The notes beneath the pieces were generated by a model. The model was not told the DNA's origin. It was given only the letters and a program-made list of their open reading frames with translations, and did no database searches. A program made the position numbers and the translations under genes. Shown here piece by piece: positions 3,831-36,873 of a stretch of 40,137 nucleotides of DNA (position 1 is the stretch's first letter; every line of letters starts with the position of its first letter). The stretch is from Candidatus Shapirobacteria bacterium (GTDB lineage: Bacteria > Patescibacteriota > Microgenomatia > UBA12405), in the NCBI GenBank assembly GCA_017992115.1, contig JAGOPG010000003.1, positions 1 through 40,137 of the forward strand, given 5' to 3'.

Positions 3831-4847
3831 TTAAGCTGAGTAGATAATTCCAAAGGAAAAAAGTAGGGACATAATAGAAGAACCACCGACAGACATAAAA
3901 GGTAGAGGTATTCCAGTGATGGGTAAAATTCCGATGTTCATTCCAATGTTGATGAAACATTGAAACCATAGTTGAAAAGCGATTCCTAGGGTAAAAAGAA
4001 ATAGAGGTAGATTGGTGGTGGTACTAAAAGCTTTTCTAAAAAGGGTATCAATAATAATGTAATAACAGGTTAAAATAATGAGAATAGCAAAAAGTCCCAA
4101 TTCTTCTGCTGTGGCGGAAAAAATAAAATCACTGTGTTTTTCGGGTAAATATAAGAGTTGACCTTGTGTACCTTTACGATAACCTTTACCAAAAAAACTA
4201 CCTGAACCAATAGCAATTTGGGCCTGAATGAGATTGTAACCTTCGTCTAGGGTGTAATTTTGGCTTTGATTGCCGGATTGGTGGCTGATAAAACTTGTAA
4301 TTCGTTCTTTTTGATAGGGTTTAAGAATAATGCCATATATAAAAGGAGCTAACAGAGTTAAGGCGATAGCGGCAAGAAGAGAAAAACGAAATAATTTTTT
4401 GTTATATAAAATGATGGGAATAATTAGGATAAAAATACTCATAGCACTACCTAAATCTGGTTGTGCCATGACAATTGCTACAGGTATTAGATGTAGTAAT
4501 GGAATTGTAGTTGTGGATAAAAAAAGCATTAGTGGGCCTTTGACAATTTCGCTAGGTTGAACCGAAAGAGGACCCAAATATAACCAACGACGAGAACCTC
4601 GGGTAAAGGAACCGACAATGATTGGAGCTAAAACTAAAAGACAAGAAAGAATAAAGAAAAAAGTTCCGGTAGAACGGTTTTGTTTGGGGTTAATTTGTGT
4701 ACCAATAAAGAATAAAGCCCCTCCTATTATCCATGATAATAGTTGTTTCCAAAAAAGAGAGGGAGCTAAAGAAGAAATCATTAAAAGGTTGAATGCAAAC
4801 AGTACTGCGAGGGAAAGAAGCAGGCGTAGGGGTATTAGACGTCTCAT
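3831..4847 (-). CDS. SEDS-family peptidoglycan polymerase (RodA/FtsW-like), second copy
   Basis: Polytopic membrane protein with SEDS motifs PSEIVKGPL, QPDLGSAMSIF, LPEKHSDFIFSATAEELG and PITGIPLPFMSVGGSS. Its start shares ATGA (4844-4847) with the ileS stop. Confidence 0.8.
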   Translation of the reverse strand: MRRLIPLRLLLSLAVLFAFNLLMISSLAPSLFWKQLLSWIIGGALFFIGTQINPKQNRSTGTFFFILSCLLVLAPIIVGSFTRGSRRWLYLGPLSVQPSEIVKGPLMLFLSTTTIPLLHLIPVAIVMAQPDLGSAMSIFILIIPIILYNKKLFRFSLLAAIALTLLAPFIYGIILKPYQKERITSFISHQSGNQSQNYTLDEGYNLIQAQIAIGSGSFFGKGYRKGTQGQLLYLPEKHSDFIFSATAEELGLFAILIILTCYYIIIDTLFRKAFSTTTNLPLFLFTLGIAFQLWFQCFINIGMNIGILPITGIPLPFMSVGGSSIMSLLFSFGIIYSA

Positions 4848-7615
4848 CGGGCTTTGTTAATGGAAAGAGAATTTCCCTTTTGGATAGAATCAGCCAATGT
4901 TTTTTCTAATATTTGTTTTTCAAAAGTGATTGGCCAATCAGGAGCGATGATGTTGATTCGATCGGTTAACTTAAGTTGTTGTTCCTTTCTTAACACTTGA
5001 ATATTTCTGATTAAATCACGGTACTCTCCTTCATCAATTAACTCAGGGGTTAATTTGGTGTCCAAAATAACGCTGGGATTTTCTTTAACGAAATTTATTT
5101 CAACATCTTTTACGTTTACTTCGGCGGCTATAATTGATAGTAAATTTTCATTTAAAGGTGAATTAAGATTGAGGGTTAACTTGGCTAAAGGTTGGCGAAT
5201 TTTGATGTTTGCAATTTGTCGTTGAGCATGACCCATTTGAGATAGAGAGCGAACTATTTCCATCTCATTTTCTAGCTGCTTATCGATAAGTTTTTCGTCA
5301 TATTCTGGCCAGTTTTGTATATGAATAGAAATGCCGGACTTTGTTAAATTCTGATAGAGATAATCGCTTAGAAATGGCATAAAAGGAGAAATCAGTAAAA
5401 ATAATTGTTCAAAAACGTAATATAGAACAGAATAATTGTCGTTTCTATCACGGGAGCGGCGGATATACCACGTAGAGAGGTCGTTGACAAAGTCTTGAAT
5501 AGCCTGAGTTGAAGGAGAAGTGGCGTATTTTTCTAACGATAAAGTTACTTTTTTAGTAGTAGTGTGGAGACGAGAAATAAGCCATTTGTCCATAGGATTG
5601 GACAAAGTATCGAGATTAATTTCTTCAACTTGCCAATTATTTAAATTAGCATGTTGAGTAAAGAAGCGATACGAATTCCATAAAATAAAGAGAAATTCAC
5701 GTTTTACCTGATCGGCAATATTGTAACCAAAATTAACATTGGCATAAGTTTTTTGTTGATAGTAAAGCCAACGCATGGGGTCGGCACCAATTTTTTCGAC
5801 CGCATCATCATAAGGAATTCCGTTTTTTTTGGTTTTGTGAATTGCTTCACCCTTTTCGTCTCGAACTGCCCCGTGAGTAACAACATTTTTGTATGGGGGA
5901 ACCTTTTCTAAAGTAACACTAAAAAACAGAAGAGAATAAAACCATAAGCGGATTTGTTCATTCATTTCCAATACAAATTCAGCGGGGAACCATTTTTCCC
6001 AGTATTCTTTATCAGTCAAATACTTAAGGGTGGAAAATGGAACCACACCAGCATCAAGCCAAACATCTCCAACATCGGGAATTCGTTTGACGTTTTGGCC
6101 ACATTTAGGGCATTTTATCTCTATTTCGTCAATCCAGGGACGATGAAGAGAAGGTAATCCTTCGACAAGCTCAGGATTAACAGCCATTTCTTTTAGCTCC
6201 TCTTTTGAACCAATGACAACAAGTTCGCCACAGCTACATTCATAAAAAGGTAGGGCTAAACCATAAAATCGTTTGCGGTTTATCATCCAATCTTCCATAG
6301 AATCTAACCAATTTAACATGCGTCGGAGGGCAAAACGAGGATGCCAAGAAACTTTTTTAGCGGCTTCGATTAAATATGGTCTGATCTCATCTGTTTTGAT
6401 GAACCAAGAATCTTCTAAACGAAAAAGACATTTAGTTTTACAACGCCAGCAATGAGGATAACGATGTGTGACGGGTTCAGTTTTGAATAATAAATTTTTT
6501 CTTTTTAGGTAGTTGATAACGATATCGTTGACTGAATGAGCATATTTACCTGAAAGTTCGCCGTAATTGTTTAAAAAATGACCGGTAGGGTCAAGAGGGG
6601 CAATCATATCTACTCCCAGCTTTTTACCCAATTCAAAGTCGGCTTGACCACATCCGGGGGCAATATGAACTACCCCTGTCCCCTCTTCAGGATTTACTTC
6701 GTCCCATGTGGTAATAAAATGGCGAACATTTTTTTGAGGGGGAATATTATAGAGGGATTCGTATTCTAAATTAACTAAATCACTGGCATCAATAACTTCA
6801 TATTCGGTTAAACCCAAGCGATCGGCAGCGATTTTAGCTAAATACAAAACATCATCTCCTTGATAATACTTAACATATTCGAATTTAGGGTTAATTGCCA
6901 ACAGAACATTAGAGGTCAAAGTCCAAGGAGTAGTGGTCCAAACAAGAAGATATTCATTATTTTTATTTTTTAATTTGAATTTTAGATAAACAGAGGTATC
7001 AGTATCCATTTGGTAACCGTCGGCTTCTTCGTGTTGCGAAAGACCAGTCTCACATCGGGGGCACCAGGTGGTAGCACTTTTTTTCTTAATAAGCCAACCT
7101 TTTTGATGAATTTTTTTGAGGAAGTACCAGATATAAAGATTGTTAGTTTCGGAATTAGTGTAATAAGAATTTTTCCAATCCATAAACATACCTAAACGGA
7201 TTGATTGTTCAGTTTGAATCTTTGAATATTTATCGACTCTGGCAATACAAGCTTTTACAAATTTTTCCACTCCAAAATCTTGAATGTCTTTTTTTGAATT
7301 AAAACCGGCTTCTTTTTCGACTTCAACCTCAACCCATAGACCCTGACAATCAAAACCATTTTGAAAACGTTGGGCAAAACCTTGGGCATTTTTAAACCGC
7401 TGAAAAAGATCTTTAAGTGCTCGACCACGAGCGTGGTGAACTCCCATGGGGTTGTTGGCGGTGATAGGACCATCAATAAAGGAAAAATTTTTGTCAGATT
7501 TGTCGTTTTTGTGTAGATATTTATCTAGTACATCATTGTCTTTCCACCACTTCAACATGTCATTTTCTAGAGCAGGAAAATCAGGTTGATTTGAAATATC
7601 TTTAAAAAAGGCCAT
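4844..7615 (-). CDS. ileS: isoleucyl-tRNA synthetase, type-2 (eukaryote-like) form
   Basis: Class Ia aaRS. DGPITANNPMGVHHARGRALKD resembles the type-2 IleRS GPPTANG.PG.HH.. region. Also GFDCQGLWVEVEVEKE, WCPRCETGLSQHE, TTTPWTL, EDWMINRKRFYGLALP and GADPMRW. IHKTK occupies the KMSKS position. Confidence 0.75.
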   Translation of the reverse strand: MAFFKDISNQPDFPALENDMLKWWKDNDVLDKYLHKNDKSDKNFSFIDGPITANNPMGVHHARGRALKDLFQRFKNAQGFAQRFQNGFDCQGLWVEVEVEKEAGFNSKKDIQDFGVEKFVKACIARVDKYSKIQTEQSIRLGMFMDWKNSYYTNSETNNLYIWYFLKKIHQKGWLIKKKSATTWCPRCETGLSQHEEADGYQMDTDTSVYLKFKLKNKNNEYLLVWTTTPWTLTSNVLLAINPKFEYVKYYQGDDVLYLAKIAADRLGLTEYEVIDASDLVNLEYESLYNIPPQKNVRHFITTWDEVNPEEGTGVVHIAPGCGQADFELGKKLGVDMIAPLDPTGHFLNNYGELSGKYAHSVNDIVINYLKRKNLLFKTEPVTHRYPHCWRCKTKCLFRLEDSWFIKTDEIRPYLIEAAKKVSWHPRFALRRMLNWLDSMEDWMINRKRFYGLALPFYECSCGELVVIGSKEELKEMAVNPELVEGLPSLHRPWIDEIEIKCPKCGQNVKRIPDVGDVWLDAGVVPFSTLKYLTDKEYWEKWFPAEFVLEMNEQIRLWFYSLLFFSVTLEKVPPYKNVVTHGAVRDEKGEAIHKTKKNGIPYDDAVEKIGADPMRWLYYQQKTYANVNFGYNIADQVKREFLFILWNSYRFFTQHANLNNWQVEEINLDTLSNPMDKWLISRLHTTTKKVTLSLEKYATSPSTQAIQDFVNDLSTWYIRRSRDRNDNYSVLYYVFEQLFLLISPFMPFLSDYLYQNLTKSGISIHIQNWPEYDEKLIDKQLENEMEIVRSLSQMGHAQRQIANIKIRQPLAKLTLNLNSPLNENLLSIIAAEVNVKDVEINFVKENPSVILDTKLTPELIDEGEYRDLIRNIQVLRKEQQLKLTDRINIIAPDWPITFEKQILEKTLADSIQKGNSLSINKAR

Positions 7616-7642
7616 AGTTGATTATACAAAATAATATCGAAA

Positions 7643-8785
7643 CTAGTTATTTTTACGTAAGAAGGCGGGAATATCAAATTCGTCTTCAATTTCGATTCCT
7701 TCAGGGAGATCTTCGTCTGGAACTAAATTTTTGAGAGCTGGGTCAATATGAGTTTTTGTTTCAGTGTCTAAACTTTCCTGTTGAGTGGGAATGGATTTTT
7801 TAAATGAAGAATAAAATTGGCTTTTATTTGGATCAAAACCTGTGGCTATTACGGTAATTTTTACTTTATCTTCAAGTTCGGGGTCAATTGAAGCTCCAAA
7901 AATAACATTTGCATCAGGAGCTACACGGCTAGTAATATTTTTTGCAGATTCTTCAATTTCGGCCATAGTTAGGTCTTTTCCTCCTGTGATATTAATTAAT
8001 ACCCCTCTGGCACCGTCAATGTTTACTTCAATTAGTGGAGAATCAGTGGCGGCATCGACAGCATCACGTGCTCTGTTGGCACCTTCACCTTCACCTACTC
8101 CCATAAGAGCAGAGCCTGCATTGCTCATAACTGATTTAATATCGGCAAAATCAAGATTAATGAGTCCGGGAACTGTAATTAAATCGGCAATTGCTTTGGT
8201 ACCCTTGGTTAAAACAGAATCGGCTATTTTAAAGGCTTCGATAAGCGTTGCTTGAGAATTAACTACCTCTATCACTTTTTGATTTGGAATAACAATTAGA
8301 GTATCGACATTTGGTCGTAAACGGGAGATACCTTCATCTGCTTTGCTCATACGACGACTGCCTTCAAAAAGAAAAGGTTTGGTTACCACTGCAATTGTCA
8401 AAATACCTAACTCTTTTTTAGCGATTTCGGCAATTATTGGAGCAGCTCCGGTACAAGTTCCACCACCCATACCTCCAGTAATAAAAAGCATATCGGTACC
8501 CTCTAAAGCTTCTTTAATTCTTTCTCGAGATTCTTCAGCTGCTTGTTGACCGATATTGGGATCACCTCCAGCTCCCAGACCTTTGGTAATTTTTTCTCCT
8601 ATTTGAATTTTGATTGGGGCTAAGGAATTTAAAAGTGCTTGAGAATCGGTATTGATAGTAATAAAGTCTACCCCCTTGATTTCTTCTTCCGAGATCATGG
8701 AATTAACAGCATTATTACCACCGCCGCCAATGCCAATGACTTTTATTTTTGCGAACTGTCCGGTTAGAGTTTTAATCAGGGCCAT
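7643..8785 (-). CDS. ftsZ: cell division GTPase FtsZ
   Basis: GGGGNNAVN, the tubulin signature GGMGGGTCTGAAP, and the C-terminal FtsA-binding peptide DIPAFLRK. Confidence 0.97.
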   Translation of the reverse strand: MALIKTLTGQFAKIKVIGIGGGGNNAVNSMISEEEIKGVDFITINTDSQALLNSLAPIKIQIGEKITKGLGAGGDPNIGQQAAEESRERIKEALEGTDMLFITGGMGGGTCTGAAPIIAEIAKKELGILTIAVVTKPFLFEGSRRMSKADEGISRLRPNVDTLIVIPNQKVIEVVNSQATLIEAFKIADSVLTKGTKAIADLITVPGLINLDFADIKSVMSNAGSALMGVGEGEGANRARDAVDAATDSPLIEVNIDGARGVLINITGGKDLTMAEIEESAKNITSRVAPDANVIFGASIDPELEDKVKITVIATGFDPNKSQFYSSFKKSIPTQQESLDTETKTHIDPALKNLVPDEDLPEGIEIEDEFDIPAFLRKNN

Positions 8786-10036
8786 TTAAGGTAGAAGAGG
8801 CTCGATAAAATTTTTAATTTTTCCAAAAATACCATTAAAAGATACTTTAATCTTTTTATTAGTACTACTTTTAGAGACAGGTTTTTGATCTTGAAAATAG
8901 AGAATAGTACCAACAGTACTGGCAAAGGCAGGATTAGTAATGTCTTCAACCAGACCGCCAAGTCGAGGGGGATTGGCGATTCTAACAGGTAGAGGTATCA
9001 TATTTGTACAAACTTCTTTGGCTAAAATAGTATCGGCTCCCCCACCAGTGAGAACGATGCCTGCGGGTATATAGTTTTCCAGACCCGCATCTTTAATTTG
9101 TGTAAAAATAAATGAGAAAATTTCTTCTAATCGGGCTTTAATAATGCCATTAACGGCGGTGGAAAAAGAAATTTTTTTGTTTTCTTCACCCAAAATACCT
9201 AGATGTTTTAATTCAATTTCATCTTCAAAACCTTTTTTATCTGCATATGCCTTGAGTTTGATTTTAATCTTTTCAGCATCTTCTAAAGGTAATCTTAGGC
9301 CAATGGCTAAATCATTAGTGATATTGTTTGCACCAATTGGGATTACTCCGGAAAAAACGGGAGAAGATTCCTGAAATACAGTTATTGATGTACTACTGTT
9401 TCCCATGTCTATCAAAGCTACTCCAAGTTCTTTTTCGGTATCGCTTAGACAAGCTTTAGCAGCAGTCAGGCCAGAATAAGCCAAGGAGTCTACTTTTATG
9501 CCTACTTCATCAAGACATTTATACAAATTTTTTAATGCTGGAGTGGAGGCTAATATTAGATGAGTTTCAACTTCCAGTCTTTGGCCACTCATACCGATAG
9601 GGTCGACTACTCCTGATTCACCATCAACGGTGTATAAACGAGGGATAATATGAACAATTTCTTTATTTACAGGCAAGGAAATGGCTTTGGCTGCCTCTAT
9701 GGCTCGATCTATGTCTGCTTGGGAAATTTCTCCATTTTGACCAGATACGGCGGTAACTCCGGTGGAATTAATTGATTCAAAATGAGGGGCAGTGAGAGAA
9801 ATAAAAGCGTGATTTATTTGAAAACCAGCCATTCTTTCGGCTGATTCTACACATTCGGTAATGGTTTTGGAGGCTTGTTCCAGATTAATAATCTGACCTT
9901 TTTTAAATCCAAGTGCAGGTTGAGACGAAACACCAATGATGTTTACTTTTGAATCGTTTTCCGGATATTGACCAATGAGAACAGTGATTTTGCCAGTACC
10001 AATGCTGAGACAATTAATATTTTTTAAATGTTGCAT
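8786..10036 (-). CDS. ftsA: cell division protein FtsA
   Basis: Actin-fold motifs (LSIGTGKITVLIG, ALIDMGNSSTSITV, GIVLTGGGA). C-terminal amphipathic helix GIFGKIKNFIE. Its stop directly abuts the ftsZ ATG. Confidence 0.9.
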   Translation of the reverse strand: MQHLKNINCLSIGTGKITVLIGQYPENDSKVNIIGVSSQPALGFKKGQIINLEQASKTITECVESAERMAGFQINHAFISLTAPHFESINSTGVTAVSGQNGEISQADIDRAIEAAKAISLPVNKEIVHIIPRLYTVDGESGVVDPIGMSGQRLEVETHLILASTPALKNLYKCLDEVGIKVDSLAYSGLTAAKACLSDTEKELGVALIDMGNSSTSITVFQESSPVFSGVIPIGANNITNDLAIGLRLPLEDAEKIKIKLKAYADKKGFEDEIELKHLGILGEENKKISFSTAVNGIIKARLEEIFSFIFTQIKDAGLENYIPAGIVLTGGGADTILAKEVCTNMIPLPVRIANPPRLGGLVEDITNPAFASTVGTILYFQDQKPVSKSSTNKKIKVSFNGIFGKIKNFIEPLLP

Positions 10037-10045
10037 GATTTCATT

Positions 10046-11122
10046 CTAGAGCTTTTTGAGTAAATTTAATAGTTTAAGGTTGATGTTAGCCTCATTTTTT
10101 GATTTTAGATTTTTAGTCTTAAGTAGTCTTTTTATATTTTTTAGTAAAATTTGGCCATTAAGATTTTTATCTAAAATAATTATGGTGTTTTTAGGGTATT
10201 TTTTGTGAAGCCAAAGAGCATTTTTAAGTTGTTCGTTTTGCTGACTGACAGGTAAAGGAATAATAATGGAATTTTTTTTGAGGGCTTCAATTTCCTGGAT
10301 AGTATTGGCACCTGCTCGACTGATGATTATTTTTGAATTATTAAATACCCAACCAATATCTTTTGCTTGGATGAATGAATAAGCAAAATATAAGGGATAT
10401 TTTTTTTCTAGTTTTTTATATTCATTAAAATCATTTGGCCCGCATTGGTGAATAATAATGGTATCCTTAAGTTGAGGTAGAATTTCTTTTATATTTTCAT
10501 TGAGATGGAAAGAACCCTGGTTTCCGGCAGTAACAAAAATTAAAGGATATTTTTTGATTTTAAACTTTAAAAAATTAAAATTTTTTGAACTACTGTCGAA
10601 GATATCCCTACGCAAAAGATTACCGGTGACGATTTCTTTTGGTGATCTTTTCTTTAAAGGAAAAGATAGAGCAATGAATTTGGAAAATGGAGCACTCAAT
10701 CGTGTAGATAAGCTTTTAGTTTTCGTCTGTTCATGGGTAATACTTTTTATTCCCAAAAGCCAAGCGGCAAAAATTACTGGGACGGAAACATACCCTCCGA
10801 AGGAAACTATTGCCCACGGCTGAATTTCCTTAAGGATTTGATAAGCACTAATGAATCCAGTAAAAATTTGAGGGATTCCCCGGATAGTATTAAAAAAAGA
10901 ACGGCGATCAAACTTACCACAGGGAATAGAATAAAATTTAACTTTTAACGATGGAATAGTCTTTGATTCGATGGACGCTTGTGTGGATGTACAAGAATTA
11001 CATCGGCGACCGATATAATATATTTTCCAGTTGAATTCAGTATCCTGCTGGAGTTGATTAATTAATTCAACGGCTGGAGTGGTGTGAGTTCCGGTGAGAA
11101 CGAGACGGCGAGTTTTGATCAT
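10046..11122 (-). CDS. murG: UDP-GlcNAc:lipid I GlcNAc transferase MurG (divergent G-loop)
   Basis: The position between ftsW and ftsA fits murG. The C-terminal ISRAGANTIQEIEA...IIIPLP...NEQLKNA matches the MurG donor-binding motif. The N-terminal loop is LTGTHTTPAVEL rather than GGTGGH. Confidence 0.8.
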   Translation of the reverse strand: MIKTRRLVLTGTHTTPAVELINQLQQDTEFNWKIYYIGRRCNSCTSTQASIESKTIPSLKVKFYSIPCGKFDRRSFFNTIRGIPQIFTGFISAYQILKEIQPWAIVSFGGYVSVPVIFAAWLLGIKSITHEQTKTKSLSTRLSAPFSKFIALSFPLKKRSPKEIVTGNLLRRDIFDSSSKNFNFLKFKIKKYPLIFVTAGNQGSFHLNENIKEILPQLKDTIIIHQCGPNDFNEYKKLEKKYPLYFAYSFIQAKDIGWVFNNSKIIISRAGANTIQEIEALKKNSIIIPLPVSQQNEQLKNALWLHKKYPKNTIIILDKNLNGQILLKNIKRLLKTKNLKSKNEANINLKLLNLLKKL

Positions 11123-12200
11123 CTTTTGAGTATAACAAGGTAGAGTATTTTTTTTCTATATTTATAGCTAATCCCATAGCTGCAAAAAGATTAATAAGCG
11201 AAGAACCTCCGTAAGCGATAAAAGGAAAAGGGATACCAGTTAGGGGGATTAGGCCGACAATGGCGGCAAAATTAATAATCCCCTGAAAGGCGATCCAGGA
11301 TGCAATTCCAAAAACCAGAAGTTTTTCATAATCATGAGCAGCTACTTGAGCTAAACGAAAAAGGCGGGAAATAAGGATTAAAAATAAATAGGTGATCAAA
11401 ATTAAACCAATGAAACCCATTTCTTCACCGATGATAGCCAATATTGAATCAGTACTAATTTTAGGAAGGAATTTATATTTATGATCAGAGTTGGCAAAAC
11501 CTTTGCCGGTAATTCCCCCAGAAGCAAGTGTTAAAACCATTTGTTGACTGTGATAACTGAGATTTTGATTTTCCTGTTGGTTTAGCAGGGTTTTTAAACG
11601 ATCAAGACGATAGGGAGAAACTAAAACTAAAATTACAGAAGTTAGTATGAAAAACAAGGAAGGAATGAGTATATCTTTTATTGAAGCTCCGGACAAAAAA
11701 TAAATGCAAAATACTATTGCGCCTATCAAAATTGCGGTGCTAAGATTTGGTTCCAAAACAACAAGAAGCAATGGTGGTAAAAGATACAGTAATAGACTAT
11801 TAAAATTTTTTTTATCTTCGAGAGTAAAAAGATATGAAAAGAAAATTACTGAGACCAGTTTAAAGAATTCTGAAGGTTGGAAATTAAAGAAAGAAAAACT
11901 AATTTGTCTTTTGGCGCCATAGGCTTCTACACCTAACCCGGGAATAAAAACTAGAATTAAAAAAATTATACCCAATAAATATAATCGAAAAGAATTTTCT
12001 TTTACTAAATTTAAATTTATTTTAGAAGTAATAAAAAGTACTATTAAGCCGATAAGCAGCCAGAGAGATTGTTTTTTGATGAAAAAATAGGGATCACCTA
12101 TATCTTTTGAAGCCTCAAAAAGTGAAGATGAAGACATAAACAAGAGTCCGATTATACTTAAGATTAAAACGTATATAAAAAGCAAGGAAAAACGTTTCAT
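11067..12200 (-). CDS. ftsW: SEDS-family lipid II polymerase FtsW
   Basis: PSEFFKL, EPNLSTAIL, DSILAIIGEEMGFIG and PLTGIPFPFIAYGGSS. The dcw context fits. The tail overlaps murG by 56 nt. The start shares ATGA with the stop of the ATP-grasp gene. Confidence 0.85.
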   Translation of the reverse strand: MKRFSLLFIYVLILSIIGLLFMSSSSLFEASKDIGDPYFFIKKQSLWLLIGLIVLFITSKINLNLVKENSFRLYLLGIIFLILVFIPGLGVEAYGAKRQISFSFFNFQPSEFFKLVSVIFFSYLFTLEDKKNFNSLLLYLLPPLLLVVLEPNLSTAILIGAIVFCIYFLSGASIKDILIPSLFFILTSVILVLVSPYRLDRLKTLLNQQENQNLSYHSQQMVLTLASGGITGKGFANSDHKYKFLPKISTDSILAIIGEEMGFIGLILITYLFLILISRLFRLAQVAAHDYEKLLVFGIASWIAFQGIINFAAIVGLIPLTGIPFPFIAYGGSSLINLFAAMGLAINIEKKYSTLLYSKDDQNSPSRSHRNSHHSSR

Positions 12201-13282
12201 TTGAATTTTTTTAGATGTTCTTCATTAATAGTTTGCACTTTATTGGTTATGATTTTAAAATCTTCTATTTTTTGGGAAATAGTTCCTGAAGGATTTCTCT
12301 TGGTTATTTGAGAGCCAATTAAATTAGGATTATCAAAACGAGACTGTTCTTTTTTGAGATTAAATTCATAATCTAATGGTATAAATTGGGCTAAATGATG
12401 GTAAAAAAGCGGGGTAAGACCAGCTTTTTGTTCTATATAAGTGTAAAAAGCAAAAGAGGCGGTTAGGCGTGGATTGCATTCAAGTAAATAAATTTTTTGA
12501 GGAGTAACTAAAAAATCAAGTCCAAAGAAACCGAGATAATTTAGGGGTTGGAGAATTTTTTTTGAAAAATTTTGAGTTATTTTTTTTATTTGACGAAGTT
12601 GTGATTTGTGGAGAAGTGAGGGCCACTGACGTCCTACGGTGGCAAAGGGATTGCTGGTTAGGGTTGGAATTCCTGTAAATTGAAGAGCGGGTGGGCTTTG
12701 CAGGAGACCTTTTTTTGTTTGGCAACAATTGTTTAAAACAGAAAAACCCTGAATATAAGGGGAAAACTTAACCAGCATATTTTTTGGAATGTGTTTTTTA
12801 GCAGAGGTGTAATTATCAAAATTGTAAGTACTATTACCTGCCCACCCAAAATGGCTTTGGATGACTAGATTTGAGCCGTAAGCTTGCTGGGCTTTTGAAA
12901 AATTTTTTTGATTAAAAGGTAAAATTAAACTATCTATCAGAGGTAATTTAGCTTTTTGGCATTGTTGATAAAATTTAATTTTATCTTCCAGTAGACGATT
13001 ATTTTTGGCACTGGGAGCTGCTAGTAACCAGTGATTTTTTTGACAAATTTTTTCTATTTTGGCGGAAGGTTTAAAGGGAACGATTACTGGATTGGCAAAT
13101 GACTTGATATTTTTTTGAATGTTTTTATCTGCCAAAAGTTTTCCACTATTTTTATAGGTTAATTTTTTTTTACTGACACTTGTAAAATTTGGTATTTCGG
13201 GAAGAGAAATATCTAAAAAATTTTCGACAACTAAAAAGAAAAAATGATACGGTGACGATTTTATAGCTTGAGTGAGGGTCAT
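12197..13282 (-). CDS. ATP-grasp carboxylate-amine ligase, specificity unknown
   Basis: LEDKIKFYQ.., LVIQSHFGWAGNS, SPYIQGFSV and GFFGLDFLVTPQKIYLLECNPRLTAS (E-x-N-P-R type Mg/ATP site). I place the start at ATG 13282, not 13360, because it forms ATGA with the stop of the upstream gene. Confidence 0.65.
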   Translation of the reverse strand: MTLTQAIKSSPYHFFFLVVENFLDISLPEIPNFTSVSKKKLTYKNSGKLLADKNIQKNIKSFANPVIVPFKPSAKIEKICQKNHWLLAAPSAKNNRLLEDKIKFYQQCQKAKLPLIDSLILPFNQKNFSKAQQAYGSNLVIQSHFGWAGNSTYNFDNYTSAKKHIPKNMLVKFSPYIQGFSVLNNCCQTKKGLLQSPPALQFTGIPTLTSNPFATVGRQWPSLLHKSQLRQIKKITQNFSKKILQPLNYLGFFGLDFLVTPQKIYLLECNPRLTASFAFYTYIEQKAGLTPLFYHHLAQFIPLDYEFNLKKEQSRFDNPNLIGSQITKRNPSGTISQKIEDFKIITNKVQTINEEHLKKFK

Positions 13283-14073
13283 TGACGTTGGGTTCCAGTA
13301 CAAACAATAACTGGATAATTTCCTGCAAGGGAAGCATTTTGTTTGTATGCTGCCAGGCAAAGAGCAGACTCGGATGAGAGAAAATGTCCTTTTAATAATT
13401 TTTGAGATTCGATAATGGCTTGGTTGTTGATAATAAAAGCTGTTGATTGGTGTTTTTTTATGATATTAATAATTTTATTTTTTAGGGGAAGAGATTTTAC
13501 TGTTAGGGCATCGGTGATGATTTTGTTTTCTGGTTTATAATTTTTGACGAAATATTTGGCAATAGTAGGATTGGCTGCACTTTGAACCCCAAAAACTTTA
13601 ATGTTTTTGGGTAAAGCTTGTGCAATTCCAAGTAATGTGGTGCCACTGCCGACGGGGATAAAAATGCTACTAACTTGTGGTAATTGTTCAAGTATTTCTT
13701 CACCAATCTGGCGGTATCCTAAAAGAGCACTTGGATCAGTAGATTGACGTAAATTATAAGCATGATTTTTTTTAGCAAATTTGATAGCGTCACTGATAGC
13801 TTTTTTAGATTTGATTACAGAAGCAGAAATTAATTTAAGTTTTTGGGGGTTAATCGAAGGAGAAATAAAAACGGTCAATTTTATATTTTGTAAGTGACAA
13901 AAGTGAGCTGCAGAGATGGCAGCATTACCAGTTGAAGAAATTACTGCTTGAGAATATTTTTGTTTTTGGAGATTTTTAAGTTGCTCTATAATGGCTCGGT
14001 CTTTAGCTGAGCCGGTAAGGTTTTTATCTTCTCTTTTTAAGTAGACTGAATTAAATTTTTCTAAAGGAGTCAT
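13279..14073 (-). CDS. PLP-dependent enzyme, fold type II (threonine synthase / cysteine synthase / racemase-like), short form
   Basis: Schiff-base lysine context YLKREDKNLTGSAKDRA (compare NPTGSFKDR); SSTGNAA; Gly loop PVGSGTT; DPSALLGYRQIGEEILEQL resembles the threonine synthase core. Only 264 aa. Confidence 0.7.
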   Translation of the reverse strand: MTPLEKFNSVYLKREDKNLTGSAKDRAIIEQLKNLQKQKYSQAVISSTGNAAISAAHFCHLQNIKLTVFISPSINPQKLKLISASVIKSKKAISDAIKFAKKNHAYNLRQSTDPSALLGYRQIGEEILEQLPQVSSIFIPVGSGTTLLGIAQALPKNIKVFGVQSAANPTIAKYFVKNYKPENKIITDALTVKSLPLKNKIINIIKKHQSTAFIINNQAIIESQKLLKGHFLSSESALCLAAYKQNASLAGNYPVIVCTGTQRQ

Positions 14074-14107: not shown

Positions 14108-14272
14108 ATGAAAGGCGCTAAAGACAAAGTAATATGTCCTGATTGTAAATCAGTTATTAATAGTAAAGATGCAGCTGTTGGTGATATTTTGGAATGTGAG
14201 GAATGTGGCACTGAGGTAGAAGTGTTGTCTATCAAACCATTAAAATACCGGGAATTGATTGAGGAGAAGTAA
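14108..14272 (+). CDS. LysW-like zinc-ribbon protein (possible amino-group carrier protein), 54 aa, not in the ORF track
   Basis: My own translation is MKGAKDKVICPDCKSVINSKDAAVGDILECEECGTEVEVLSIKPLKYRELIEEK. CPxC...CxxCG with GDIxxC..CG.E.EV...PL follows the LysW/ArgW pattern. It is the only ORF I found by eye covering the gap between the flanking minus-strand genes (14074-14231). The tail lacks the canonical EDWGE. Confidence 0.55.
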   Translation: MKGAKDKVICPDCKSVINSKDAAVGDILECEECGTEVEVLSIKPLKYRELIEEK

Positions 14273-14801
14273 TTCGGTAAATACCATCGTATTTAAAATT
14301 TTTGTCATTGATATCAAATTGCCCGTAATGAACTTTGCGACCTGCCCGAGAGCTTTCGACATAATAAATTTTGTTTTCAACTTTTTCAATAATAAAGATA
14401 ACGTGGCCTCCTTTTTCTTGACGAATTAAGTCGGCAGTCTGAGCATCCTTTATATTTATTTTTTTAGAAAGCGGGGCAGAAGTGAGAATGTCGGCGGAAG
14501 TTTTTCGAGGGTTGAAATTAGTTTTAAGGTAGAAATTAAGTAGTTGGACAGTCAAACCAGAGCAGTCAATTCCAATTTTATGTTTTTTTTGAAAATTGTA
14601 AATTTGAGTTGGAGTCATATTGATGATTTTTTTATTATCCGTGTTTGCTAATTCTATGGTTTTCAGGGCGATTTCTTTGGCATTACCCTTGCCAACTAAA
14701 GCAATCTCAGGAAGGTATTTTTTGGTGACGTTCATGTAATAAGGAATGCCAATATATTTATCTATTTCTTTATAAAGTTCTTCTAATTTAGACCTAACCA
14801 T
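14232..14801 (-). CDS. NlpC/P60-family cysteine peptidase/amidase, no signal peptide
   Basis: Catalytic Cys context GIDCSGLTVQLL, downstream His in GGHVIFII, then YYVESS. The N-terminus MVRSKLEELYKEID is hydrophilic. I prefer ATG 14801; the track's 14867 start lies inside mraY. Confidence 0.6.
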   Translation of the reverse strand: MVRSKLEELYKEIDKYIGIPYYMNVTKKYLPEIALVGKGNAKEIALKTIELANTDNKKIINMTPTQIYNFQKKHKIGIDCSGLTVQLLNFYLKTNFNPRKTSADILTSAPLSKKINIKDAQTADLIRQEKGGHVIFIIEKVENKIYYVESSRAGRKVHYGQFDINDKNFKYDGIYRITSPQSIPGILMV

Positions 14802-15817
14802 AGACCAAAAATTGCTAAAATAATTGCGGCTAACCAAGCACGGAATACAATTTTGGGTTCTTCCCATCCAAGTTTTTGCAAAGTAAGGTGAATTGGAGCT
14901 GCTGGAAAAATTTTCTTGCCACGATACTTTTTACTGATAATCTGTATAGCACTACTGAGACCTTCTACTATAAAAGGCATGCCAACAATTATTAAGGGAA
15001 TAATTTTCCCTAAAAGAAGAGCTATAAGTGCAAAGGTGGCCCCAAAGGAAAGGGAGCCAACATCGCCCAATATTATTCGAGAAGGATATACATTAAAATA
15101 TAGAAAGGAGATGAGAGCACCAATCCAAAGAGAGAGAAAAAGAGATATTGGTGTATCCAAGGAAGTACCAGCTAAAATCCAAAAAGCAAAAAGTGCAATC
15201 AATAAAATTCCGCAAGATAGGCCGTCTAGTCCATCAGTAATATTAAAAAAATTGGCAAAGGCAACAATAATGGTGGTACTAATGGGAATAAAAAAGAGGC
15301 CAAGAGTAATGGCACCTAAAAAAGGCAGGTAAATGAAATGAATACCAAGTTTGAAGTAAAGAAAAAAAGATATAAATAAGGCAAGAATGATTTGAAGTAT
15401 CAATTTATGTTTCATTCGAAGGCCAAAAAATCCGTTTTTTTCAAAACCAAAAAACTTGTGAACATCATCATATAAACCCAGTAGACCGAAACTAATGAAA
15501 GTGAAAAAAATGATAAAAATCTCGTTTAATAGATTAAAATTACTGGAAATAAAGATTCCTGAAATCTTAAGTAGTTGAAAAAGAACAAAAAAAAGTATGG
15601 TAACAGAAAAGATAACTAATAATCCCCCACCGGAGGGAACACCAGCTTTAATGGAGTGGTATTTATCAAAAATTGGAGTGCTTTTGTTTTGAAAATCGAG
15701 TGTTTTTTGTTTTTGACGCTGAAATTTGAAGTGATAAAGAAGATTAATAAAAGGGACAACCAAGATGCTTGTAGCGATAAAAGCAAATAATAGTAGTCCA
15801 AGAAAAAGATTAATCAT
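14783..15817 (-). CDS. mraY: phospho-MurNAc-pentapeptide translocase MraY
   Basis: Polytopic membrane protein with NFFNITDGLDGL, GDVGSLSFGA and a PAAPIHL-like HHH-region remnant. dcw context fits. Confidence 0.9.
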   Translation of the reverse strand: MINLFLGLLLFAFIATSILVVPFINLLYHFKFQRQKQKTLDFQNKSTPIFDKYHSIKAGVPSGGGLLVIFSVTILFFVLFQLLKISGIFISSNFNLLNEIFIIFFTFISFGLLGLYDDVHKFFGFEKNGFFGLRMKHKLILQIILALFISFFLYFKLGIHFIYLPFLGAITLGLFFIPISTTIIVAFANFFNITDGLDGLSCGILLIALFAFWILAGTSLDTPISLFLSLWIGALISFLYFNVYPSRIILGDVGSLSFGATFALIALLLGKIIPLIIVGMPFIVEGLSSAIQIISKKYRGKKIFPAAPIHLTLQKLGWEEPKIVFRAWLAAIILAIFGLWLGLN

Positions 15818-17142: not shown

Positions 17143-18429
17143 TTATTTTTTAAAATAATTAATAACTTTTTTGAAAATATTTAAACCCTCTTGTCCTCCG
17201 GAACTAAAATGAACAAGTATTTCATTTTTTTTAAGTGTTTTTTGATAATGATTGAGAACATCGATTGGTAATGGTAAATAAAAACTGTGGGGAATAATTT
17301 TTAGATAATCCTTGGCTGTTAAGCGAATTTTATATTTGTGGTTAAAGTTGAGTTTATAAATTACGGTTTCGGAAGATAGTTCTAAAGCTTTGGCGAGTTG
17401 TTTTATACTATCGGGATGTTGCATAAAGGAAGCATGACTTTCATAAAATACCTTGATTTTTTTTTGAGGATAATGTTTAATTATCGTTTTAATAGTGGCT
17501 TCAATTCTTTTTGCAGATTGAGAAAAATCATCGATAAAAATATTATTTTGATTTTGAAAAAGTATTTCAGCCCGTCTTTTGATGCCTTTAAAATCGGTTA
17601 AGGCATTTTGAGTGATTTGTGTATTTAGTAATAGTTTTTGACAAAGGGTAAAAACAGCACCTAAATTCTGGAGATTATAATCCCCAATTAACTGGCTTTT
17701 AAATTTAATTGGTTTATAGGGAATAGTAGGACATTTAGCAGATAATAATAAGGGAGGTATCTGTTTGTCTTGAGGGTTGTAAATAATTAAACCGTTTTTG
17801 GGAAGGCTATTAATTAATTTCTGAAATGCTTTTAGATTTTCAGTAGCAGAGGTATAACTTTCTTTGTGTTCCCAGTTAACACTGGTCAAAATAAGGTATT
17901 TTACTGGATAATAGAGGAATTTTGCTTTGACATCTAAACCGTTAATAGATTCGTCACCTTCTATTATCGACCAGTCTGAATTAGAAAAATTTAATGAAGG
18001 TATAGCATTTATAGCTTGACCACCAAACATGTATGCTGGATTCAGGTGGTGTTTTTTAAAACAATAAACCAAGGCAGCGGTAGTGGTTGTTTTACCAAAA
18101 GACCCGGCAACGACAATAGAATTTTTTTTGGTTAACATTTTTGCTAAATATTTAGTTGCTGATATATACGGAATATTAAGTTCTCGAGTTTTTTCATACT
18201 CTTCTCTTGTTCTAGAAAAACTTTTATAGGATGAACCTACTATTACCAAATCAATATTTCGATTAATTTGTTGGTGATTTATGGGAATTTTGGCTTTCTT
18301 TAATTGGGTACTAAAAGGAGGAAAAATGTTATCTTGATCTGAGCCAGTAATTTCATGACCTGATTTCTTTAAGGCTATAGCCAGAGGTGCGGCCATAGAA
18401 CCAGCGATTCCAATAATATGGATATGCAT
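17143..18429 (-). CDS. Mur ligase of the MurC/Mpl type
   Basis: N-terminal Rossmann IHIIGIAGSMAAPLAIALKKSGHEITGSD; IPYISATKYL; P-loop VVAGSFGKTTTTA at about residue 113. DDFSQSAKRIEAT sits where MurC/Mpl have DD[YF].HHP. Confidence 0.7.
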   Translation of the reverse strand: MHIHIIGIAGSMAAPLAIALKKSGHEITGSDQDNIFPPFSTQLKKAKIPINHQQINRNIDLVIVGSSYKSFSRTREEYEKTRELNIPYISATKYLAKMLTKKNSIVVAGSFGKTTTTAALVYCFKKHHLNPAYMFGGQAINAIPSLNFSNSDWSIIEGDESINGLDVKAKFLYYPVKYLILTSVNWEHKESYTSATENLKAFQKLINSLPKNGLIIYNPQDKQIPPLLLSAKCPTIPYKPIKFKSQLIGDYNLQNLGAVFTLCQKLLLNTQITQNALTDFKGIKRRAEILFQNQNNIFIDDFSQSAKRIEATIKTIIKHYPQKKIKVFYESHASFMQHPDSIKQLAKALELSSETVIYKLNFNHKYKIRLTAKDYLKIIPHSFYLPLPIDVLNHYQKTLKKNEILVHFSSGGQEGLNIFKKVINYFKK

Positions 18430-18431
18430 GG

Positions 18432-19034
18432 CTAATTATAAGATATCCATTGATTATTAACAAAGTATTCAAAATTGGGAAAGTTTCTTTTGTAAAAACC
18501 TAATTTATTTTTGGGGTTGAAGCGACCCAGATAACAATACTTTAATTGCTTAGCGGCGCTATCGATGGCCGTTTGAAGAGCAAGCCTGATGGGTAGATCC
18601 TGATGAGCGTATTTTGGATTATAAAAAACATAGGCAATATGGGAAAAATTCTTCTCAAAGAGGCAAAGTGAGTAGGCAACCACCTGATTTGTAATAGTGT
18701 CTGTCCAAATATAAAGATAATTAAAAATATGATTCTTAAAAACAGTTTTTATGGAAGAAGAGGGAAAATCCCAATTTAATTCCTTAACCCACGAATGGAT
18801 AGTTTTTTGTAAAGATGGAGTGTATTCGAAAGTACTTAAAGGAACTAATTGATGAGTAAAATGTTGGGTTTTTTTTAGAATACGACGATTTTCTGATGAA
18901 AGTTGAAAATTATCTAATTTTGAGCGTGAGGAAAAATTATCATCGGTATAAAATAATTTTTTTTGATTGCGTTGAGGCAACCATCCTTGTTGGTAATTTT
19001 CTTCAAGACTTAGATTATTTTGTAAATTAAACAT
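18432..19034 (-). CDS. Bpt/ATE-family (arginyl/leucyl-tRNA protein transferase-like) GNAT-fold protein
   Basis: FQLSSENRRILKK, VVAYSLCLFEKNFSHIAYVFYNP and YCYLGRFNPKNKLGFYKRNFPNFEYFVNNQW resemble the ATE_C/Bpt core (..S.S.RR.., A.Y.F..P, YLGY....M.YK..F.P.E.....W) as I recall it. The Cys-rich ATE_N motif is absent. Confidence 0.5.
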   Translation of the reverse strand: MFNLQNNLSLEENYQQGWLPQRNQKKLFYTDDNFSSRSKLDNFQLSSENRRILKKTQHFTHQLVPLSTFEYTPSLQKTIHSWVKELNWDFPSSSIKTVFKNHIFNYLYIWTDTITNQVVAYSLCLFEKNFSHIAYVFYNPKYAHQDLPIRLALQTAIDSAAKQLKYCYLGRFNPKNKLGFYKRNFPNFEYFVNNQWISYN

Positions 19035-20277
19035 TTTTTTCCTTTAATCGGAAAGCAGTGCGAAATGCTTCGGTTTCAGACCAGGGGTATTCGGTTTTAC
19101 CCAATAAAATCGATGTTTCATGACCTTTTCCACAGGCAATAATGGTGTCTCCTGATTTGGCGATTTTGACAGCTAAATTAAATGCATCCTGACGGTTTGA
19201 TAATTGAGTGTATAAAAAGCCACTTTGGTTTTCCGGGAATTTATCGGCTTCAAAATAAGTTGATTTTTTAGGGTTTATCCCGGAAATAATTTGAGCATTT
19301 ATAGTGTTGATATTTTCATTACGGGTGTCGTCGGATGTGATTATGGCAATATCAGCAATTTTTGAAACGACATCACCCATTAGAGGACGTTTGCTTTTGT
19401 CGCGGCCACCAGTAGCCCCGAAAATAACAATTAATCTTCCTTTTACACTTGGTTTTAGAGAAGATAAAACCTTGGATAAAGCGTTGGGGGTATGAGCAAA
19501 ATCAACTATACAACGAAGATGAAGGTTGTTGTCGACCAATTCTAATCGGCCTTTTATTTCCGGGAAATGGGCTATAGTTTCGGCAAAAACATTTGAGTCC
19601 AGTTTTAGTTCAGAAAAGGCTGAGAAACAGGCTAAGATATTATATATTTGATAATCGTAATTAGAGTCCGTTATAAAATTGTGGCGATTAATTCTGAAAG
19701 TCATATTTTCTGGAGTAATTTTAATTCTGTCTGCAGTGTAATCTGATTTGTTTTTAAGGCCATAAGTTTTAAATTTAACATTAAGAGATTTTTTTATATC
19801 TGAAAAATATTCATCATCATGATTGAGAATGGCTAATTCAGATTGGGTAAAAAGTTTTTCCTTGGCTTTTACATATTGATCCATGTTTTTGTAATAATCC
19901 AGGTGTTCGTGGCTAATGTTGGTAATAATGCCAATTTTAAAATTACATCCCCAATAACGAAACTGACTTAATGCGTGAGAAGTAACTTCACAAACTACAT
20001 GAGTGTAGCCAGATTTAGAAAAATCATATAAAATTTTTTGCAAAATTTTGGGTGAAGGGCTGGTTGTATGCAATCCGGGACTGTTGATAGTGCTAATGAC
20101 TCCGGCGTGTATACCACTGTTTTCTAATAATTTTTGCAATAGTGTACAGGTGGTTGTTTTTCCATCAGTACCAGTTACTCCAATCAGAGTTAATTTGCGA
20201 CTGGGAAAGGAATAGTAGAAATTCCAGAAGATGGCTTGAGGTAAATGCCAAAGCCAATTTTTTAGGGTTTTGAGCAT
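19027..20277 (-). CDS. murE: MurE-like Mur ligase lacking the N-terminal UDP-binding domain
   Basis: FYYSFPSRKLTLIGVTGTDGKTTT (P-loop Lys at residue 40), VDFAHTPNAL, FGATGGRDKSKRPLMG and TSDDTRNE (the DNPR position). Confidence 0.7.
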   Translation of the reverse strand: MLKTLKNWLWHLPQAIFWNFYYSFPSRKLTLIGVTGTDGKTTTCTLLQKLLENSGIHAGVISTINSPGLHTTSPSPKILQKILYDFSKSGYTHVVCEVTSHALSQFRYWGCNFKIGIITNISHEHLDYYKNMDQYVKAKEKLFTQSELAILNHDDEYFSDIKKSLNVKFKTYGLKNKSDYTADRIKITPENMTFRINRHNFITDSNYDYQIYNILACFSAFSELKLDSNVFAETIAHFPEIKGRLELVDNNLHLRCIVDFAHTPNALSKVLSSLKPSVKGRLIVIFGATGGRDKSKRPLMGDVVSKIADIAIITSDDTRNENINTINAQIISGINPKKSTYFEADKFPENQSGFLYTQLSNRQDAFNLAVKIAKSGDTIIACGKGHETSILLGKTEYPWSETEAFRTAFRLKEKNV

Positions 20278-27365: not shown

Positions 27366-27384
27366 AGATAAATTTTATCATATG

Positions 27385-36866: not shown

Positions 36867-36873
36867 AAGCAGA

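Follow-up and report, generated by a model that had tools for sequence, protein, structure and literature searches.

A LysW-type carrier protein, a PLP-dependent enzyme and an ATP-grasp enzyme form a conserved gene module at the murD position of the cell wall cluster of Candidatus Shapirobacteria

The present study examined a 40,137-nucleotide stretch of DNA from a Candidatus Shapirobacteria bacterium (contig JAGOPG010000003.1 of assembly GCA_017992115.1; hereafter the window), in whose division and cell wall (dcw) operon the genes for a fold-type-II pyridoxal 5′-phosphate (PLP)-dependent enzyme and an ATP-grasp enzyme stand directly before ftsW, in the slot of murD. The pair is best explained as the enzymatic core of a conserved peptidoglycan-precursor module of the Microgenomates, within the candidate phyla radiation (CPR), that is built around a LysW-type carrier protein. 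The module is tied to the MurD step, being found either beside murD or in its place, and we tentatively propose that it is a carrier-protein route that supplies the D-Glu-type residue at position 2 of the stem peptide.

Gene content and arrangement of the module

The dcw operon of the window is one tightly packed unit that runs on the minus strand from 21.9 kb down to 7.6 kb in the order ftsI, murE, an ATE_C-like gene, a murC-like gene, murA, mraY, a P60-like gene, the PLP enzyme, the ATP-grasp enzyme, ftsW, murG, ftsA, and ftsZ. Intergenic distances range from −56 to +13 nt, with the sole exception of 158 nt located 5′ of the PLP gene. The stop codon of the threonine-synthase-like PLP enzyme (264 amino acids (aa); 13279..14073, minus strand) and the start codon of the predicted ATP-grasp amidoligase of biotin-carboxylase/carbamoyl-phosphate-synthetase type (361 aa; 12197..13282, minus strand) share the tetranucleotide ATGA at 13282-13279, and the stop codon of the latter shares a second ATGA, at 12200-12197, with the start of ftsW (11067..12200, minus strand; a SEDS-family gene with 289 bits on PF01098 and 301 bits on TIGR02614), such that both gene pairs are predicted to be translationally coupled through these overlaps. 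The ATP-grasp open reading frame (ORF) extends from an ATG at 13282 to position 12197; in the mechanically generated list of ORFs, its start is a TTG at 13360. The two ORFs, their motifs, and both ATGA overlaps had been reported in a preliminary description of the window and are all present exactly as described, and hidden Markov model searches confirmed the domains (PF00291, E = 7.8e-41, for the PLP enzyme; PF02655 ATP-grasp_3, E = 8.5e-9 and 36.1 bits against a gathering score of 23.2, for the ATP-grasp enzyme).

That description was correct with regard to the two enzymes but overlooked two further genes. The 158-nt "gap" is occupied on the opposite strand by a 54-aa ORF encoding a LysW-type zinc-ribbon protein (14108..14272, plus strand; MKGAKDKVICPDCKSVINSKDAAVGDILECEECGTEVEVLSIKPLKYRELIEEK), which reads divergently from the PLP gene, and a gene for an NlpC/P60-like cysteine peptidase of about 189 aa (14232..14801, minus strand) lies next to mraY (14783..15817, minus strand; PF00953; TIGR00445 170.9 bits), overlapping the mraY stop by 19 nt. 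We take mraY as the upstream boundary of the module. These two genes likely shift the mechanism from the ligation of a free amino acid to carrier-protein chemistry. The LysW-like and P60-like genes converge with a 3′ overlap of 41 nt (14232-14272), and the antisense orientation of the carrier gene, inside an operon that otherwise reads in one direction, is kept at all loci examined. A promoter and terminator scan of 10.5-16 kb gave nothing above shuffled expectation.

Conservation in Shapirobacteria

Scanning one genome per species placed the ATP-grasp gene in 83 places, and 80 loci, nearly all from Shapirobacteria, were kept (individual loci are given L numbers below); arrangements were counted from tblastn mapping over these 80 loci. 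The PLP and ATP-grasp genes are adjacent in 76. A LysW-like gene within ~1 kb of the ATP-grasp gene completes the order LysW-like, PLP, ATP-grasp in 71, the P60-like gene precedes these three in 70, and the full order of mraY, P60-like, LysW-like (opposite strand), PLP, ATP-grasp, and ftsW is found in 66/80. The remaining 14 loci are contig ends, with the exception of L060, in which no LysW-like ORF was detected. Because the same order recurs in 66 species-level genomes, the arrangement is not due to chance, and the suggestion that the pair is a dedicated, lineage-wide component of the dcw cluster in the murD slot is borne out.

In this arrangement, which is that of the window and is hereafter termed type A, murB, murD, murF, and ddl are not in the cluster: searches with E. 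coli MurD, MurF, DdlB, MurB, MurI, and FtsQ against all ORFs of the window and of 86 Shapirobacteria-type neighbourhoods (~10 kb to each side, or to the contig end) returned no match. Many public records with Shapirobacteria-type clusters are titled 'uncultured Gammaproteobacteria' (L007, L009, L011, L018, and others) and one 'Candidatus Methanoperedens' (L071), which probably reflects wrong taxon labels or binning contamination of these metagenome-assembled genomes.

The PLP-dependent enzyme

The PLP enzyme carries YLKREDKNLTGSAKDRA at residue 11, SSTGNAA at 46, and PVGSGTT at 140; TGSAKDR and SSTGNAA thus provide the G-S-x-K-D-R lysine motif and the S-T-G-N loop. Residues K24-D25-R26, S46, G49-N50-A51, S111, S143-G144, and E235 are invariant over all module types, and because the catalytic residues are invariant in every version of the module, the enzyme is likely active. 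Its relatives all measure 261-288 aa; across the module types, the protein has 264 aa in the lineage of the window and 274-362 aa in others. Relatives appear in databases under the names 'threonine synthase', 'threonine dehydratase', and 'PLP-dependent lyase/thiolase'.

The enzyme resembles the threonine synthase/cysteate synthase branch in its G-S-x-K-D-R motif, its S-[ST]-G-N loop, and its best NCBIfam matches, which are archaeal-type threonine synthases, the top one being PRK08329. However, against a cut-off of 358, the window protein gives only 88.7 bits and the longer protein of type B, described below, 144.8 bits, and scores overall fall 4- to 8-fold under the equivalog cut-offs. Also unlike threonine synthase, the protein lacks the N-terminal region at a length of only 264 aa, has Ala in place of Thr after G-N, and is not encoded in a thr operon; among the module-bearing loci examined, the gene always lies in the dcw cluster beside the ATP-grasp gene and never in a thr or cys operon. 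The earlier view that this is not an ordinary threonine or cysteine synthase accordingly holds.

The AlphaFold2 model of the enzyme (mean predicted local distance difference test score, pLDDT, of 92.5) is equidistant in Foldseek searches from threonine deaminase, threonine synthase, serine racemase, and O-acetylserine sulfhydrylase (OASS), with template modeling (TM) scores of ~0.85 at 18-22% identity, and the family profile searched against PDB sequences shows the same equidistance, so the reaction type is not assignable among these four classes. At the position of the serine racemase si-face serine (S84 in the human enzyme), the window protein has Thr48 and the type-B and type-C proteins have Ser; threonine synthase and OASS also have Ser or Thr there.

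The ATP-grasp enzyme

The ATP-grasp enzyme carries LEDKIKF at residue 98, LVIQSHFGWAGNS at 139, GFFGLDFLV at 251, and IYLLECNPRLTAS at 264, and E-C-N-P-R (ECNPR) is invariant in its family, in contrast to the E-x-N-x-x-P-G region of Ddl. Close homologues (57-62% identity) are named Candidatus Shapirobacteria, which places the organism in the Microgenomates within the CPR/Patescibacteria, and relatives bear the database names 'ATP-grasp domain-containing protein' and 'biotin carboxylase'. The best-scoring named family for the window protein (82.4 bits against a cut-off of 684), as for every member of the superfamily, is PRK06524 'biotin carboxylase' (NCBIfam NF005096), with which it has E-x-N-P-R in common. 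Unlike that family, the superfamily scores only 82-194 bits against the cut-off, and neither biotin carboxyl carrier protein nor carboxyltransferase genes were found in any neighbourhood examined; the NCBIfam accC models gave no match to the window protein.

The AlphaFold2 model (pLDDT 94.2) has biotin carboxylase, pyruvate carboxylase, PurK, and PurT as its top 50 Foldseek matches (TM 0.55-0.64, 12-16% identity). These matches are at the level of the fold, and a search of PDB sequences returned none, so no substrate can be inferred from them. In hhalign comparisons, E. coli DdlB (E = 0.011 over 29 columns) and RimK (E = 0.83) ranked below AccC (E = 8.6e-4 over 181 columns), which argues that the enzyme is neither a Ddl nor of LysX/RimK type by descent; the Dala_Dala_lig domains and NCBIfam Ddl models, the RimK/LysX models PF08443, TIGR00768, and TIGR02144, and the Pfam Mur ligase domains (Mur_ligase_M/C) all gave no match. 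The earlier distinction of this ligase from Ddl was therefore well founded.

The LysW-like carrier and the NlpC/P60-like peptidase

The LysW-like ORF scores 39.4 bits on PF21344 Zn_ribbon_LysW, above the gathering score of 27. Its four-Cys zinc ribbon (CPDC...C.ECG) is conserved in 77/77 loci, as is the terminal Lys of its tail, which reads ...YRELIEEK in the window and Y-x-E-L-[IV]-E-E-K in consensus. E-E-K ends all module-linked carriers, types B and C included (E-E-K-G in L091), and this tail is the most striking conserved feature of the module.

The mechanical ORF of the P60-like gene runs to 14867, with the true start being MVRSKL at 14801. Across the alignment of 25 orthologues, Cys80 (GIDCSGL) and His133 are invariant, and a third His (AHSS) is present in the type-B protein. 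Weak matches to the Pfam NLPC_P60 domain were found in 23 of the 25 members (best E = 8.6e-6), the window copy scoring 15.8 bits, below the PF00877 gathering score of 23, and the family profile had no significant match among PDB sequences. Because its sequence has no N-terminal hydrophobic segment, the protein is probably cytoplasmic. In addition to the 70 Shapirobacteria loci, the gene is present in L089, L090, L091, and L095; it is absent from L093 and from all murD-bearing versions of the module.

Other versions of the module and their relation to murD

An exhaustive search with the ATP-grasp profile returned 2008 cluster representatives at E ≤ 1e-3 (234 of them at E ≤ 1e-30), among them a large clade of 416-480-aa relatives that lies outside the Shapirobacteria clade and is also from Patescibacteria. 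Two further versions of the module were distinguished, in all loci of which a LysW-like gene accompanies the ATP-grasp gene.

Type B (L089, from Woesebacteria, and L090, L091, L093, and L095) has a paralogous ATP-grasp enzyme of 416-451 aa, and its clusters also hold murF and, in most cases, murB, with L095 having neither. The L089 and L090 clusters contain a canonical ddl, which in L090 scores 353.8 bits against a cut-off of 262; the murF-like genes of L090 reach 234-288 bits on the MurF model, just below the cut-off of 288.6. The L090 cluster thereby contains every cytoplasmic mur gene except murD: where murA, murB, murC, murE, murF, ddl, mraY, and murG are together, murD alone is missing and the module sits in its slot. 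The module of L089 is split (7103-13886), its PLP gene, a methyltransferase gene, a reversed murB, and the ATP-grasp gene being followed by an 81-aa ORF, ddl, murF, mraY, and ftsW.

Type C, seen in three other lineages (L092/L096, L098, and L100), has the LysW-like gene (opposite strand), the PLP gene, and the ATP-grasp gene directly downstream of murD, without the P60-like gene; in L098 and L100, ftsW, murG, murC, and murB follow the ATP-grasp gene. The murD of type C is genuine, with 258 and 237 bits on TIGR01087 against a cut-off of 212. In L092, also from Patescibacteria, the PLP and ATP-grasp enzymes are fused into one protein of 782 aa that is present in ENA, NCBI, and JGI assemblies, and this natural fusion corroborates the functional coupling that had been proposed for the two enzymes.

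The preliminary description had the pair in place of murD, which is true of the cluster of the window, but elsewhere the module coexists with a genuine murD. Because both coexist in type C, the module did not originate as a murD replacement, and the possibility that it is strictly such a replacement is ruled out by L092, L098, and L100. None of the loci gathered has both the P60-like gene and murD in the interval from mraY to the carrier gene. This pattern is compatible with a takeover of some function by the P60-like protein after murD had left the cluster, and equally with murD having merely moved.

In another lineage, the order is polA, murD, LysW-like (opposite strand), and holA (L140 8198-9782; L154 5500-7057; L159 7468-9025). 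This murD is a genuine one (342 bits), no PLP or ATP-grasp gene is nearby, and the LysW-like tails of L140 and L154/L159 end in Glu (...TEETEE, ...EEKIDE) rather than in E-E-K. A more distant relative of the ATP-grasp enzyme, a 493-aa protein with the highest PRK06524 score, belongs to a different cluster in L094 (4075-12930), its neighbours being a PKD/7TM-transglutaminase protein, a second ATP-grasp protein (ATPgrasp_ST), a MATCAP-like peptidase, an FGase-family amidohydrolase, a Ddl_C-like protein, and a GNAT protein; this cluster looks like a peptide-modification, possibly tail-modification, system.

A proposed carrier-protein route to position 2 of the stem peptide

To our knowledge, the only role known for LysW-family proteins is that of amino-group carrier. 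LysW is loaded with glutamate or alpha-aminoadipate by an ATP-grasp enzyme (LysX/ArgX) and is unloaded by a hydrolase, MurD adds D-Glu, and NlpC/P60 enzymes typically cleave gamma-D-glutamyl bonds. In the route that we propose, the PLP enzyme would convert a common amino acid to a non-proteinogenic one by stereo-inversion or by beta/gamma-replacement, the product most likely being of D-Glu type. The ATP-grasp enzyme would use ATP to link that amino acid, through an amide bond, to the C-terminal ...E-E-K tail of the carrier, doing the job that LysX/ArgX does for LysW although it is from another ATP-grasp lineage. The NlpC/P60-like peptidase would release the amino acid from the carrier or transfer it, and the product would feed the MurD step at position 2. 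We infer that the ATP-grasp enzyme acts on the carrier tail, which amino acid is involved, in which direction the P60-like enzyme works, and that the product belongs to position 2. This carrier-assisted reading is the most economical because of the invariant tail, the coupling and fusion of the PLP enzyme and the ligase, the linkage to murD, and the existence of an L094-type cluster, and we regard it as possible and hold it tentatively.

The components all have known folds, and the logic of the module resembles that of the amino-group carrier protein (AmCP) systems of LysW/LysX type that serve lysine biosynthesis in Thermus, arginine and lysine biosynthesis in Sulfolobus, and the synthesis of DADH in Streptomyces. 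The likeness comprises a PF21344 zinc ribbon of ~54 aa, an acidic conserved tail, a carrier gene beside genes for an ATP-grasp enzyme and a hydrolase, and a presumed logic of loading, modification, and release. In contrast to those systems, the module has a tail ending in E-E-K rather than EDWGE, an ATP-grasp enzyme of biotin-carboxylase/carbamoyl-phosphate-synthetase type rather than RimK/LysX type, a fold-type-II PLP enzyme as the modifier, an NlpC/P60-like rather than an M20 hydrolase, no LysZ/LysY/LysJ/LysK, and a dcw context rather than one of amino-acid biosynthesis.

Several of these differences weigh against the proposed route. In LysW, the terminal Glu of the EDWGE tail is the attachment site, and neither EDWGE nor a terminal Glu is present in the carrier tail here; LysZ/LysY/LysJ/LysK-type genes were found neither in the window nor in the neighbourhoods examined, and the apparent descent of the ATP-grasp enzyme is not that of LysX/RimK. 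The motifs of the PLP enzyme lean toward threonine synthase and OASS, which have S-x-K-D-R, rather than toward racemases and dehydratases, its lysine motif being S-[AVIL]-K-D-R and not the racemase-type S-F-K-[IL]-R-G, and the enzyme has more the look of one catalysing beta/gamma-replacement than of a racemase. PLP chemistry moreover needs a free alpha-amino group, with which a LysW-style N-linkage of the tethered amino acid is incompatible, so either the order of the steps or the attachment point must differ from the LysW pathway. The Lys at the end of the carrier tail is a weak point in this respect, the candidate attachment points being the Lys epsilon-amine, the Glu gamma-carboxyl, and the terminal carboxylate. 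Finally, release by the P60-like enzyme is not universal, given that its gene is missing from L093 and the murD-bearing versions.

A stronger form of the proposal is that MurD, and perhaps MurI as well, has disappeared entirely from Shapirobacteria and Woesebacteria, which would fill position 2 through the LysW-like carrier, the ATP-grasp enzyme, the PLP enzyme, and the NlpC/P60-like enzyme, the last of which, encoded where sister lineages have murD, would be the catalyst of transfer or release. We consider this MurD-independent version doubtful.

Alternative explanations

The absence of murD alone from otherwise complete clusters that have the module in its slot, together with the PLP::ATP-grasp fusion that is to be expected of consecutive steps and the Ser or Thr at the serine racemase si-face position in all members, also fits a simpler scheme, in which the PLP enzyme would be a D-Glu racemase and the ATP-grasp enzyme would ligate D-Glu directly to UDP-MurNAc-L-Ala as non-orthologous replacements of MurI and MurD, with the LysW-like protein having an accessory or regulatory part. 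However, a genuine murD is directly adjacent in L092, L098, and L100, and this scheme leaves both the invariant E-E-K tail and the P60-like enzyme unexplained, and we consider it rather unlikely. A precedent by gene context is MurD2/MurL of Xanthomonas, in which there are likewise additional genes adjacent to murD and D-Glu is supplied by MurL without MurI; unlike the present module, MurL is an ATP-dependent epimerase acting on UDP-MurNAc-L-Ala-L-Glu, without a PLP enzyme, an ATP-grasp enzyme, or a carrier.

Position 3 or the cross-bridge could instead be the target, with the ...Glu-Lys-COOH tail of the carrier mimicking the end of the UDP-MurNAc-tripeptide. The module would then make a diamino-dicarboxylic acid by beta-replacement (a lanthionine or diaminopimelate analogue) or add a branch of D-Asp/D-Glu type to the Lys epsilon-amine, as in Enterococcus faecium. 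The S-x-K-D-R motif of beta-replacement enzymes and the threonine synthases among the best matches of the PLP enzyme, the Glu-Lys end of the carrier tail with its free carboxylate, the aminoacyl-tRNA-transferase-like gene in the same cluster, and the Arg in the DNPR-equivalent motif of MurE (DDTR), which is read as a sign that MurE selects a diamino acid bearing a distal carboxylate, all point in this direction. Against them stand a positional link to murD rather than murE, a lack of any sign of a sulfur or serine-phosphate supply, and the want of a precedent for a protein that mimics the stem peptide, and on balance this option is unlikely. The aspartate racemase and D-aspartate ligase of E. 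faecium and Lactococcus are similar in that adjacent genes provide a D-amino acid and an ATP-grasp ligase for the peptidoglycan peptide, the acceptor being the Lys epsilon-amine next to D-Glu; that racemase is, however, PLP-independent and no carrier is involved.

Reversible tailing of proteins has precedents in RimK acting on S6 and in tubulin tyrosination, and by analogy the ATP-grasp enzyme could add, and the P60-like enzyme remove, amino acids on the C-terminal tail of the zinc-ribbon protein as a mark, with the marked protein regulating MurD, FtsW, or division instead of carrying a metabolite. The invariant tail of the carrier would suit such a mark, as would the company of MATCAP-like, transglutaminase-like, and GNAT genes beside the distant ATP-grasp relative and the LysW-like genes that adjoin murD even where the PLP and ATP-grasp genes are not nearby. 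The PLP enzyme, though translationally coupled to the ligase and joined with it in a single protein in one lineage, would have no role in this scheme, and several versions of the module are without the P60-like gene, which makes the scheme quite improbable.

Replacement of alanine racemase and D-Ala-D-Ala ligase had been among the earlier suggestions, and it has in its favour that Ddl is also an ATP-grasp enzyme and that ddl and murF are found neither in the window nor in the 86 Shapirobacteria-type neighbourhoods. Like the module, Alr and Ddl combine PLP and ATP-grasp enzymes within the dcw cluster, but the PLP fold is II here and III in Alr, the ATP-grasp subfamily is another one with no Dala_Dala_lig match and a negligible hhalign score against DdlB, and type-B relatives join the module, canonical ddl, and murF in one cluster. 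Because of this co-occurrence the ATP-grasp enzyme is not a Ddl substitute, so the suggestion fails for Ddl and as a whole is largely refuted and very improbable. The chance placement of an ordinary threonine or cysteine synthase beside an unrelated ATP-grasp enzyme of amino-acid metabolism, in keeping with the top named matches and with the names that some databases give to relatives, is scarcely credible for a truncated protein that scores so far below the cut-offs and is confined to dcw clusters at the module-bearing loci.

Other Mur enzymes and neighbouring genes

Between murE and the murC-like gene lies a 200-aa ORF (18432-19034, minus strand) that resembles the C-terminal domain of arginyl-tRNA-protein transferase (ATE_C-like, a Fem-like GNAT fold; PF04377 E = 1e-4, NCBIfam arginyltransferase ~31 bits) and that tblastn detected in all loci reaching that far except L072. 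In L095 (3331-5268), the ATE_C-like domain is fused by a Pro/Ser linker to a MurC-like ligase in a protein of 645 aa, which suggests an aminoacyl-tRNA-dependent step coupled to MurC. The MurC-like ligase of the window (17143-18429, minus strand) scores 191.6 bits against the MurC cut-off of 335 and 154 bits on the Mpl model, its C-terminal domain is not recognised by Pfam, and it could accept a substrate other than L-Ala.

The MurE of the window (416 aa; 19027-20277, minus strand; 13 nt from ftsI) begins at approximately position 76-93 of the MurE models and thus is without the N-terminal UDP-binding domain. MurF in relatives (403-420 aa) is likewise short at its N-terminus (L090 5854-7086; L104 2531-3757). 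We considered whether the carrier might be the scaffold on which the peptide is built before an Mpl-like MurC adds it, which would explain the short MurE and MurF; as a leading model this idea was dropped because L104, which has murD in the canonical slot, has an equally short MurF (408 aa).

The window has a low GC content (33-39%), and the minus strand carries all genes except a few at the left end; Rfam and tRNA scans returned a tRNA-Val at 1559-1631 as the sole match. The called ftsW and murG genes share 56 nt (11067-11122), as they do in L001, and the true start of murG may lie downstream of the annotated one. A second SEDS gene, rodA-like (3831-4847, minus strand; PF01098 233 bits), directly follows ileS, which itself follows ftsZ, with the rodA-like stop overlapping ileS by 4 nt; the order ftsZ, ileS, rodA, rplU, rpmA, and parB is kept in L001 and L005. 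Directly upstream of rsmH (mraW), in the usual place of mraZ, is a 200-aa ORF (22914-23516, minus strand) without a Pfam match; L001 and L002 have a 202-aa homologue at this site. The dcw operon is preceded by a long polysaccharide-synthesis cluster (25416-39119, minus strand) with a DUF4012 protein (649 aa), a Bac_transf sugar transferase, a nucleotidyl transferase, eight glycosyltransferases, a Wzy_C/O-antigen-ligase-like membrane protein, and a hexapeptide acyltransferase.

Implications

The cytoplasmic steps of peptidoglycan synthesis (MurA-F, Ddl, MurI, and Alr) are regarded as near-universal and are antibiotic targets, and here a large uncultured radiation has, where MurD is normally encoded in the division and cell wall operon, a conserved module of carrier, ATP-grasp enzyme, and PLP enzyme, joined in some versions by a cysteine peptidase. 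Literature searches (LysW with murD, or with ATP-grasp and threonine synthase; AmCP with PLP or peptidoglycan; Shapirobacteria, Microgenomates, or CPR with murD or peptidoglycan) found nothing pertinent on this module. Its proteins are directly testable, small, soluble, and confidently modelled. Even the conservative outcome, an accessory supply of D-Glu for MurD, would give functions to three families that now bear generic or misleading names ('threonine synthase/dehydratase'; 'ATP-grasp domain protein' or 'biotin carboxylase') or are called 'hypothetical'. If MurD has been lost, no earlier example would exist of a peptidoglycan pathway that runs without MurD, or of cell wall synthesis that employs a protein of amino-group-carrier type. 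If the module supplies position 2, it would constitute a new route to a D-amino acid or other unusual amino acid in the cell wall, would extend LysW-type carrier chemistry beyond the synthesis of lysine, arginine, and secondary metabolites, and would help to explain how genome-reduced episymbionts build their walls.

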